The notes: generated by a model not told the origin, from the sequence alone. Shown: positions 7,816-9,595, counted from the stretch's first letter. The stretch is 64,000 nucleotides of DNA from Escherichia coli (GCF_041248615.1 NZ_CP158426.1); one strand, 5' to 3'. Numbers and translations: made by a program.

Positions 7816-7898
7816 TAAGTTGTTACGAGCTGCAAGAATACAACATTAACAACTTTTACCACAACTTTTAGGTGTTGGAAAGCTAAAACATAAAGTTG
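7816..7898. promoter_or_regulatory. immunity-region operator/promoter (OR-like) between cro-like and cI-like genes
   Basis: five copies of the heptamer ACAACWT / AAGTTGT (7816, 7839, 7848, 7860, 7892) plus ACAACTT-TT-AGGTGTT 16-mer. Confidence 0.5.
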
Positions 7899-7928
7899 TA
7901 ACCTCATCAAAAAAGAGAGGGATATGTT

Positions 7929-8615
7929 GTGAAAACACTGGCAGAACGATTAAAGATAGGTAGAGAGAAAGCTGGCATGAGCCAAGCTCAACTAGCTGAA
8001 AAAATTGGACTTTCACAACAATCTGTAGCCAAAATAGAGAATGGCGAAACTCTACAACCGCGCAAAATTAAAGAAATTGCAAAAGTTTTAGGTGTATCAC
8101 AAAAGTGGTTACAACTTGGTATTGAAGACAACGCATCCATACCTGATCTTGTTGTAAAAGAAGCAGAAAGCACCGCATTAGACCCCGATATTTTCGTAAA
8201 CATTCCTGTTTTAGATGTCGAGTTATCGGCAGGTAACGGATGTCTGGCTGAAATAGTTGAATCAGCTATTGACTGGTTTCCGTTAAGAAGAGCAGATTTG
8301 AGAAAATCTGGCGTATGTGCATCTAATGCCAAGATCGTACAAATATGGGGGAACAGTTTATTACCGGTTCTCAATAATGGAGATCTTGTTGCCGTTGATA
8401 TTTCTCAAACCGTTCCTATTCGTGATGGCGATCTTTATGCCGTACGAGATGGTGTATTGCTAAGGGTTAAAATACTTATCAACTTACCTGACGGTGGCTT
8501 GATTCTTAGAAGCTTCAACAAAGATGAGTACCCAGATGAAATACTCACCTTTGAAGATAGACGAGCCAGAATTCATGTTATAGGTAGGGTATTCTGGTCA
8601 TCGCGAACTTGGTAA
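7929..8615 (+). CDS. CI-like prophage repressor (XRE HTH + S24 LexA-type autopeptidase), GTG start
   Basis: 228 aa; N-terminal HTH (MSQAQLAEKIGLSQQSVAKIENGE); C-terminal GNSLLP...K peptidase S24-like Ser/Lys context. Confidence 0.85.
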   Translation: MKTLAERLKIGREKAGMSQAQLAEKIGLSQQSVAKIENGETLQPRKIKEIAKVLGVSQKWLQLGIEDNASIPDLVVKEAESTALDPDIFVNIPVLDVELSAGNGCLAEIVESAIDWFPLRRADLRKSGVCASNAKIVQIWGNSLLPVLNNGDLVAVDISQTVPIRDGDLYAVRDGVLLRVKILINLPDGGLILRSFNKDEYPDEILTFEDRRARIHVIGRVFWSSRTW

Positions 8616-9488
8616 TGCATCGAAAAGCATTTCTTCAGAAATAATTTTAAGTTTTGCACCATTATCATCCCTATAAGATATAGCCTTTTCGATCTTCCTT
8701 CCGTGACTAGAGAATTTCCAATCACGGGAGGAAAGCGTCCCAATTACTAAAAAATCCAACTTTTGAGTAATTCCACTACTGATGTTCCCACCAGCATTTT
8801 TAATCAAATTTTCAACTACGGCTCTCTTTCCTGCAACAAAAGTGCCTGTAAGACAATAGGTTTTACCCTCTAACTCTATCGAAGCCCCTACATCAATAGG
8901 CAGCCTGGTCGCCAAACCATCCACCACCCCACTTTCCAAGTCACATCCTGTGAAGTCTACTAATGCCTTATGTAGAGTTAAACTCTCATCTTCAGTAATA
9001 ACACCATCTTTAAGAATTTCCTTTACAAGTGCATAAAGTTTTTTTCCTGGGTAGTTGTTCTTCAAAGCTCCATTTTGCTCAAGCCACCAATTAAGATATC
9101 TTATTTCTTCTTGAGTTAAGTTCCGATCAGCAATTAATCCTTTACATAGTCCATTAAGTAAATGGACATCTACATCCTTGGAGTAAAAATCAATTTCAGG
9201 GATATCAAGAATTTCCCTCTGTATTTGGAGAAGACTATTTTTAAGGTCATCACGTTCTTCTGATGTGATTATTCCATCCGCAAGAATATCCGACACCCGT
9301 GCAGATAGACTTTTTATAACTCCATTATTGATAATCTGCTTTGCTTCAAGTAACCATGTATCTAAGTAAAGAACCTCCTCTTCACGGACAACTCCATCTG
9401 CAATGATTCCATCAATGATGCTAATCAAGTTAGCAAATAACTTGTCCCGGTTCTGTGTGTAATTAAAAGCGTAAAGCGCGTCTTCCAT
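8598..9488 (-). CDS. repeat-containing protein with C-terminal BRCT domain (296 aa from ATG 9488, GGAGG SD)
   Basis: four ~40-aa repeats with ADG(V/I)ITxEE motif, then EGKTYCLTGTFVAGKRAVVENLIKNAGGNISSGITQKLDFLVIG resembling the LigA-type BRCT fold. Confidence 0.55.
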   Translation of the reverse strand: MEDALYAFNYTQNRDKLFANLISIIDGIIADGVVREEEVLYLDTWLLEAKQIINNGVIKSLSARVSDILADGIITSEERDDLKNSLLQIQREILDIPEIDFYSKDVDVHLLNGLCKGLIADRNLTQEEIRYLNWWLEQNGALKNNYPGKKLYALVKEILKDGVITEDESLTLHKALVDFTGCDLESGVVDGLATRLPIDVGASIELEGKTYCLTGTFVAGKRAVVENLIKNAGGNISSGITQKLDFLVIGTLSSRDWKFSSHGRKIEKAISYRDDNGAKLKIISEEMLFDALPSSR

Positions 9489-9545
9489 ACAACCTCCTTT
9501 TTTTGATAATCCTTGCACTCCTTGGCTACTCGTTCAAACCACATA

Positions 9546-9595
9546 AAGTTGTTGACAACATTCAAAACCACAACTAAATTACAACTTAAAGGTGT
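9546..9595 (+). promoter_or_regulatory. second operator/promoter region (OL-like): -35 TTGACA (9552..9557), 17 bp, -10 TAAATT (9575..9580) overlapped by the same heptamer repeats
   Basis: AAGTTGT 9546, ACAACAT 9555, ACAACTA 9570, ACAACTT 9581, and ACAACTT-AA-AGGTGTT 16-mer shared with the 7860 region. Confidence 0.45.

Follow-up and report, generated by a model that had tools for sequence, protein, structure and literature searches.

Does the control region between the cI-like and cro-like genes of an Escherichia coli prophage form, together with a second region about 1.7 kb away that carries the same short motif, the OR/OL pair of a lambdoid immunity region, and which genes would such a pair then govern? 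The question was raised by an earlier note on 64,000 nucleotides of E. coli DNA (GCF_041248615.1, NZ_CP158426.1); this whole stretch is called the window here, and all positions are counted from its first letter. The window agrees with E. coli NRZ14408 (NZ_LT599825.1) at 100% identity. Our analysis very probably identifies the segment ~7535-9600 as the immunity cassette of an SfV/e14-like lambdoid prophage, made up of cro, OR, cI, an optional BRCT gene and OL/PL, with sites that are most likely read by CI. The genes of the cassette and its surroundings are as follows.

6965-7522, minus strand: ymfL, coding for a CII-like protein (family search).
7545-7793, minus strand: cro-like gene, 82 aa, WP_000187185.1; phrog_35 transcriptional repressor, in RefSeq a small transcriptional regulator.
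7929-8615, plus strand: cI, coding for a 228-aa repressor, WP_000853320.1, with a 434-like HTH and an S24 domain; phrog_4, in RefSeq an XRE-family regulator.
8598-9488, minus strand: BRCT-domain gene, 296 aa; phrog_3989, a phage family.
9713-9988, plus strand: first gene downstream of PL, SfV orf33-like, phrog_3195, in RefSeq a hypothetical protein; it is followed by yfdP, IS1, yfdQ and yfdR (RefSeq).

The cI gene (HTH and S24) and cro are divergent and separated by a short gap with operators over both promoters, and a second operator set lies beyond cI, over a promoter that fires away from it. The stretch homologous to SfV and to many e14-like prophages reaches as far as ~7534, in the gap between ymfL and cro; in the direct comparison with SfV the homology resumes at ~9600, 3-5 nt past OL1, from where the leader is common to the window and this heteroimmune phage. 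Relative to SfV, repressor, cro and both operator sets have been exchanged as one module. The backbone is the same as in SfV and e14 (ymfK-ymfT-ymfL) on both sides, with ymfL on the left and homologues of orf33 and yfdP/Q/R on the right, and SfV has its cI, cro and TTGACA PL promoter at the same positions; only the cassette differs, SfV possessing another cI and cro, no BRCT gene, and TGTACC-type repeats of its own around its TTGACA promoter; a putative operator region is also annotated in SfV. Such a swap within a common backbone is what classically marks an immunity cassette. The OR/OL logic proposed in the earlier note is borne out by five features: the two regions flank a CI-type gene and carry the same palindromes over promoters, their layout is kept in at least five genera, the block is swapped with respect to SfV, and a 434-like CI domain goes together with a 434-type operator. 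The same note took the genes to the right of the second region for cargo, which they are not; the genes right of PL, from the orf33-like one through yfdP/Q/R and beyond, make up the early-left operon conserved among SfV-like phages, and the optional cargo is instead the BRCT gene, within the cassette. Since the PL operon harbours IS1 and IS1414, there may be no viable phage left for the switch to control.

The conservation of this arrangement was assessed in related prophages. Across Enterobacterales, the identity of CI homologues falls off gradually from 93% to ~46%, and a genome scan returned 17 loci, nine of which, with a cI 57-84% identical to that of the window, make up our comparison set (Citrobacter, Serratia, Rosenbergiella, Providencia and Proteus). 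The distant relatives L012-L019 (cI 46-50% identical), which have similar dyads in OR and a second cluster upstream of cro instead, were left out of the argument on layout.

Counted over both strands of the 64 kb, the motif from which the earlier note started, ACAACWT, is present in 35 copies, against 18.0 +/- 4.2 expected from dinucleotide shuffles, none out of 100 of which reached 35. The four to five copies announced for each region are present on the left, where 7817-7899 holds five (7817-, 7840+, 7849+, 7861+ and 7893-) and a sixth follows at 7924-, but not on the right, where three strict copies are found in 9546-9587 (9546-, 9555+ and 9581+) and more are reached only with the variants ACAACTA (9570) and AAGGTGT/AGGTGTT (9589-9596). 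A repeat finder recovered the nearly identical 16-mer that had been seen in both regions (7861-7876 vs 9581-9596, 14/16 identical), along with ACATAAAGTTGT, common to 7888-7899 and 9541-9552 (12/12), and a third shared block (7840-7853 vs 9555-9568, 12/14). The 7-mers did not, however, stand as units; on sequence grounds they are the half-sites of a 15-bp pseudo-palindrome, ACAACTT-W-AAGTTGT, and it is this dyad that would be the functional unit, with two strong examples per region and some orphan half-sites besides. When ACA[AC]C-Nk-G[GT]TGT was counted in the window and the nine related loci (~100 kb), 19 matches with k=5 and one with k=7 were obtained, all of them within OR/OL of the 10 loci; no match was found at any other k, nor outside OR/OL anywhere in the ~100 kb of loci. 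This count ruled out a 14-bp 434-style spacing, or any spacing besides N5, and an apparent N8 signal in a loose count was an artefact of GTTGTTGAC overlapping the PL -35.

Four sites in the control regions of the window, at 7861, 7885, 9538 and 9581, have at most two mismatches to ACAACTT-N-AAGTTGT. A symmetrised matrix made solely from 36 sites of the nine non-window loci gave these same four the highest scores in the 64-kb window, in the order 9581, 7885, 7861 and 9538 (20.3-23.1 bits). The maximum score in simulated 64-kb sequences averages 12.5 bits (95th percentile 17.5), and five sites in the window score at least 14 bits vs 0.24 expected. The fifth of them, at 10380 (16.9 bits), lies within an STnc100-like sRNA; this 15-mer was rejected as an operator, being absent as a conserved element from Citrobacter L004 and having a score reachable by chance. 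Neither is every ACAACWT copy a site, and several were discarded: the copy at 9555 is created by TTGACAAC and is not conserved in relatives, that at 9671 belongs to the leader DNA common to the heteroimmune phage SfV, and that at 8111 is located within cI. The operators and the promoters that they accompany are listed below, the operators without a strand.

7809-7823: OR1-like position, with conservation, in all 10 loci, confined to the half-site AAGTTGT (7817-7823).
7861-7875: OR2, ACAACTTTTAGGTGT, 20.6 bits, conserved in all loci.
7885-7899: OR3, AAAACATAAAGTTGT, 20.8 bits, conserved.
9538-9552: OL2, ACCACATAAAGTTGT, 20.3 bits, conserved in all loci.
9581-9595: OL1, ACAACTTAAAGGTGT, 23.1 bits, the best matrix score in the window.
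7835-7864, minus strand: PR, with -35 TTGTGG (7864-7859), an 18-nt spacer and -10 TATTCT (7840-7835).
7875-7904, plus strand: candidate PRM, with -35 TTGGAA (7875-7880), an 18-nt spacer and -10 TAACCT (7899-7904).
9552-9580, plus strand: PL, TTGACA (9552-9557), 17 nt, TAAATT (9575-9580), 10/12 in the promoter scan.

The strong dyads are two per region, the third OR position being a half-site in the window. This OR1-like position corresponds to ~+5 to +19 of PR and lies 52 bp from OR2; its full 15-mer is weak, with a matrix score below 0 in the window and 3-4 mismatches in the other loci. The matrix and mismatch search of OR and OL did not retrieve the three tandem operators per region of the lambda/434 pattern, and a third palindromic OR site considered at 7840-7854 was rejected with a matrix score of just 2.2. 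Three operators per region are not a strict requirement, since 933W has fewer sites at OL (PMC3317979).

The sites lie over conserved promoters. OR2 overlaps the PR -35 by 4 bp and adjoins the PRM -35, and OR3, 24 bp from OR2, is inside the PRM spacer and -10; OL2 and the PL -35 share one T, the last base of the former and the first of the latter, and OL1 begins directly after the PL -10 and covers the expected transcription start. The near-consensus promoter that the earlier note had found overlapped by the motifs in the second region is PL, whose form TTGACA-17-TA(A/G)ATT can be recognized by eye in each of the ten loci, the scan having also picked it out in L003 and L004; it faces rightward, away from the BRCT gene and toward the early-left operon. 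The PR hexamers of the window are weak (7/12, under the promoter-scan threshold), and in the homologous position of L003 and L004 the scan finds TTGTGA-18-TATAAT (10/12). The putative PRM, weak, directed rightward to cI and likewise under the scan threshold, is proposed from the columns of the OR alignment, in which TTGGA is invariant after OR2 and is followed by a spacer of 18-19 nt containing OR3 and by TAnnnT in all loci; with this placement OR3 would cover the core and OR2 would lie near -42, an arrangement like that of lambda.

Two dyads upstream and two downstream of cI are present in 9/9 related loci, 24-25 bp apart in the former case and 43 bp in the latter. In the alignments, with mean identities of 61% for OR and 77% for OL, the dyads stand out as invariant islands together with the promoter hexamers next to them, and the spacers and flanks vary. 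The distance from OL2 to OL1 is 43 bp in all loci, and that from the OR1 half-site to OR2 is 52-54 bp in nine loci and 42 bp in Rosenbergiella, one helical turn apart. That the operators bracket the lytic promoters at whole helical turns (43; 52-54 or 42 bp) might point to repression through a small protein-held loop and not through adjacent cooperative dimers; the distances would be compatible with an interaction of the promoter-bracketing dimers.

Which protein reads the dyads can be approached from the two regulators themselves. CI homologues carry the Pfam domains HTH_3 and Peptidase_S24, and the most similar structural homologue of the CI DNA-binding domain is the 434 repressor (PDB 1PER/2OR1, E=3.3e-14); the N-terminal domain also matches 434 Cro (E=1.1e-10). 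In the alignment of CI with the 434 repressor tQQSieqlENG stands against sQQSvakiENG, the Gln-Gln-Ser start of the recognition helix being retained and 434 Gln33 being Lys in this CI, and helix 3 is near-invariant among CI homologues ([ST]QQ[SA][IV]xKIE). These features point to CI dimers as the most likely readers of the 15-bp dyads. OL1 is flipped in L004, L005, L006 and L010, which have ACACCTTAAAGTTGT in place of ACAACTTAAAGGTGT; since this is the same dyad, the change would be tolerable for a symmetric protein dimer.

On the other hand, the putative recognition helix of Cro, VKQQ(H/Q)VWNW, is conserved in all relatives (VKQQQ(V/I)WNW in the alignment of 9 loci) and resembles the KQQ helix of 434 Cro, so that Cro probably reads the same half-sites; against PDB it gives only a marginal match, to the all-alpha Cro 3BD1 (E=0.08). 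It could be argued further that the Cro-like protein is the main or even the sole occupant of the dyads, and that CI uses a different, unrecognised operator. The invariance of a helix like that of 434 Cro speaks in favour of this reading, as do the half-sites that occur outside dyads, namely ACAACAT (7840-7846) and ACAACTT (7849-7855) in the PR spacer and the conserved ACAACTA (9570-9576), which overlaps the first two bases of the PL -10 hexamer: a CI dimer has no obvious need of such direct repeats. We nevertheless consider it unlikely. To our knowledge, the operators of all studied lambdoid phages are common to CI and Cro, the repeat finder detected no other repeated element common to both regions, and the CI domain itself is closest to the 434 repressor. 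The operator of the latter shares the outer ACAA..TTGT with the dyads described here (434 operator organisation, PMC1636474). The conserved direct-orientation orphans (7840, 7849 and 9570) are unexplained by a simple dimer-on-dyad model, and they could belong to Cro or to another protein.

With CI as the principal reader of the dyads, a switch of the following kind can be proposed. In the lysogen, CI at OR2, over the PR -35, and at the sites around PR would keep cro and the replication genes off, and from ~-42 it would contact RNA polymerase at the weak PRM and so maintain its own synthesis, OR3 being filled at high CI concentration to limit PRM. CI at OL1 (PL start) and OL2 (PL -35) would silence the strong rightward PL, which is expected to drive the early-left operon, i.e. 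the orf33-like gene, yfdP/Q/R and excision genes as in SfV. All repression would be released by RecA-stimulated self-cleavage of CI. The cleavage site A101-G102 is conserved in at least 90% of the sequences, and S143 and K181 are invariant (20 homologues); given the conservation of cleavage site and catalytic residues, SOS induction is expected. In this scheme the identity of the binding protein, the sequence in which the sites fill, any cooperativity and the activation step are inferred.

The position of the BRCT gene raises the question of the ownership of OL. The earlier note had described the second region as lying upstream of this gene, which is right as to location, but the near-consensus promoter there is PL, which faces away from the gene, and OL goes with cI. 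The right-hand cluster might still be seen as a private control region of the BRCT gene, travelling with it and not with cI, considering its location 50-100 bp upstream of the BRCT start codon and the conserved weak BRCT promoter that abuts OL2. This is very improbable: L009 (Serratia) and L011 (Providencia) have no BRCT gene, and still their cI is followed at once by OL2, the TTGACA promoter and OL1, with the usual 43 bp from OL2 to OL1. The strong promoter, moreover, points away from the gene. Because OL is kept in these two loci, it belongs to cI and not to the BRCT gene. The latter, found in 8 out of 10 loci, is an optional accessory insert in a rex-like slot between cI and OL. In its product Pfam sees only a C-terminal BRCT domain (aa 206-290); among phages, the closest homologues of the gene are orf2 of Vibrio phage K139 and kp3 of phage Kappa (33% identity). 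That the likeness of the two regions has no function and goes back to a local duplication, or to low-complexity DNA rich in A and T, as the low local G+C (33% in 7794-7928, 39% in 7500-9700) might suggest, is scarcely credible, as simulations with the local AT-rich composition reach a mean maximum of 6.6 bits (99th percentile 16.5) against the 20-23 observed, the sites are invariant islands between variable spacers in alignments otherwise 61-77% identical, and OL1 is still a dyad where it is flipped.

The stretch between OL and the BRCT gene holds one further feature.

9509-9537, minus strand: BRCT promoter candidate, with -35 TTGAAC (9537-9532), a variable 17-nt spacer and TGC plus AAGGAT (9517-9509).

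On the minus strand of all eight BRCT-bearing loci TTGA(T/A)(T/C) abuts OL2 and is followed by a variable 17-nt spacer. The hexamer beyond the spacer is (A/G)AGGAT in seven of these loci, L008 having AACTAT instead; a TGn stands before it in five, and an A-rich leader with a ribosome-binding site comes after it. This looks like a promoter of the weak, activator-dependent type with OL2 centred near -43, and OL2, situated exactly between back-to-back -35 hexamers, may be its class-II activator site, a geometry that is used by the lambda and 434 repressors at OR2/PRM. It is tempting to speculate that CI may activate the BRCT gene from OL2. Tentatively, and with more doubt than confidence, OL could be viewed as bidirectional, OL2 serving both PL repression and BRCT activation, with the bracketing operators repressing through a small DNA loop. 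If this were true, the prophage repressor would directly turn on a lysogeny-only, possibly defensive gene from OL.

The immunity region of lambda has the order OL/PL - rex - cI - PRM/OR/PR - cro. The cassette shares with it an OR of several operators between divergent cI and cro, a repressor with HTH and S24 domains, the second operator set over a promoter firing away from cI, the accessory-gene slot between cI and OL that is occupied by rex in lambda, and the 24-bp OR2-OR3 spacing, with one site adjoining the -35 of a weak maintenance promoter. It differs from lambda in having operators of unrelated sequence (15 bp vs 17 bp), only two strong dyads in each region where lambda has three sites, and PL and PR operators that bracket the promoter (43; 52 or 42 bp) and are adjacent in lambda; the accessory gene is divergent from OL here, whereas in lambda it is transcribed with cI.

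The outer bases of the 434 operators are ACAA...TTGT, in the form ACAA-N6-TTGT. The dyads of the cassette have these outer bases in common with them, as well as A/T-rich inner bases and a repressor with the QQS start of the recognition helix, but they read ACAA-N7-TTGT, with 15 bp, a central base pair and a conserved C at position 5. Phage 434 has six 14-bp operators in which the outer four bases are conserved (PMC1636474). The 14-bp ACAA-N6-TTGT form of imm434 was not found, 19/19 strict dyads being 15-bp ACAAC-N5-GTTGT, and neither was a cI nearly identical to that of imm434, the best match in the phage collection being 44.5% identical. The cassette is an immunity different from imm434. The phage records contain no cI above 44.5% identity to that of the window, and no phage of the INPHARED collection carries the cassette, nucleotide matches being limited to the flanks.

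The 933W repressor was modelled on that of 434 as the closest structural template, and five operators were recognized in this phage, judged from ten half-sites (PMC3317979). The likeness to our system consists in the 434-templated repressor and in the presence of fewer than three operators at OL; both operator sequence and repressor are different. The Stx-phage cI matches in the phage collection are 41-42% identical to this cI, and 933W is absent among the matches listed.

As an OR/OL pair of a lambdoid prophage the system is of a textbook kind and does not change the understanding of such switches. Its specificity, 15-bp ACAAC-N5-GTTGT read by a 434-like domain, seems to have no description in the searched literature or phage collection, the literature search having returned only unrelated papers, or none, for the operator motif. 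A repressor, an operator consensus and promoter positions can be assigned to an immunity type that is widespread in Enterobacterales prophages, and it offers a natural comparison for 434-type recognition, in which the same QQS helix faces a site one base pair longer. It also provides a testable case of a repressor-controlled accessory gene, the BRCT gene, in the rex position, and the possible CI-activated BRCT promoter at OL is the sole element that could raise its interest. The whole cassette is carried by 46 of 5,426 complete E. coli genomes, and homologues of this immunity type also occur in Citrobacter, Salmonella, Klebsiella, Serratia, Providencia and Proteus.

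The leader of the predicted rightward promoter PL (9600-9690, plus strand; AACAGGCAGGACGCCCACGAAGTAGCCGC...) is near-identical in the heteroimmune Shigella phage SfV and in the related loci of Citrobacter (L003) and Serratia (L010), and this almost exact sharing of sequence suggests a conserved transcribed element placed downstream of swappable operators, possibly a nut-like or other RNA signal. The operon that PL would drive carries two insertion sequences (IS1 and IS1414), and therefore the prophage may be defective despite its intact immunity cassette. The insertion sequences and other features discussed here are listed below.

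Features of the prophage by position in the window
4862-5188, minus strand: gene of a small 'LexA family transcriptional regulator' (RefSeq, 108 aa)
8598-9488, minus strand: gene encoding a BRCT-domain protein, filling the slot that separates cI from the predicted operator region OL
9906-10151, minus strand: 81-aa ORF, full-length match to phrog_3311 (E=4e-55)
10239-10453, plus strand: STnc100-like sRNA (Rfam RF02076; E=2e-7, with 43.8 bits where the gathering score is 47)
11045-11742: IS1, between yfdP and yfdQ
about 14485-15693: IS1414, to the right of IS1

More distant cI relatives (L012-L019, from Serratia oryzae, Leminorella, Pragia, Budvicia and Limnobaculum; cI 46-50% identical to that of the window) retain ACAMC-N5-GKTGT dyads in the predicted operator region OR. 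The motif clusters of these loci lie at about 4380-4420 and 4870-4960 (locus coordinates), the one outside OR being located ~500-600 bp upstream of cI, past cro, and not downstream of cI, a layout thus unlike that of the cassette in the window. In the window, a half-site (ATGTTGT / AAGTTGT, 7924-7931) overlaps the GTG start codon of cI; the loci from E. coli, Citrobacter, Serratia and Rosenbergiella all retain it in the form GTTGTG.

Among the 10 loci that share this immunity type, 8, from different genera, carry the conserved BRCT gene, and its product is 33% identical to Orf2 of Vibrio phage K139 and Kp3 of Kappa. The Pfam match is confined to the C-terminal 85 aa (BRCT); the N-terminal 200 aa, with no family assigned, show apparent internal repeats (DG[VI]IT.EE...L). 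PADLOC returned a weak match of the protein to the candidate system PDC-S48 (E=2.4e-7).

To the right of OL, the STnc100-like sRNA ends 3' in a terminator hairpin faintly similar to DicF and contains the sole operator-like 15-mer of the window beyond OR and OL (10380-10394); RefSeq instead calls a frameshifted hypothetical CDS (10264-10574). The 81-aa ORF, lacking RefSeq annotation, is convergent with the orf33-like gene and overlaps its end. The 'LexA family' gene sits amid prophage replication and Nin-region genes and, judging by its small size, its product comprises only a LexA-type DNA-binding domain.
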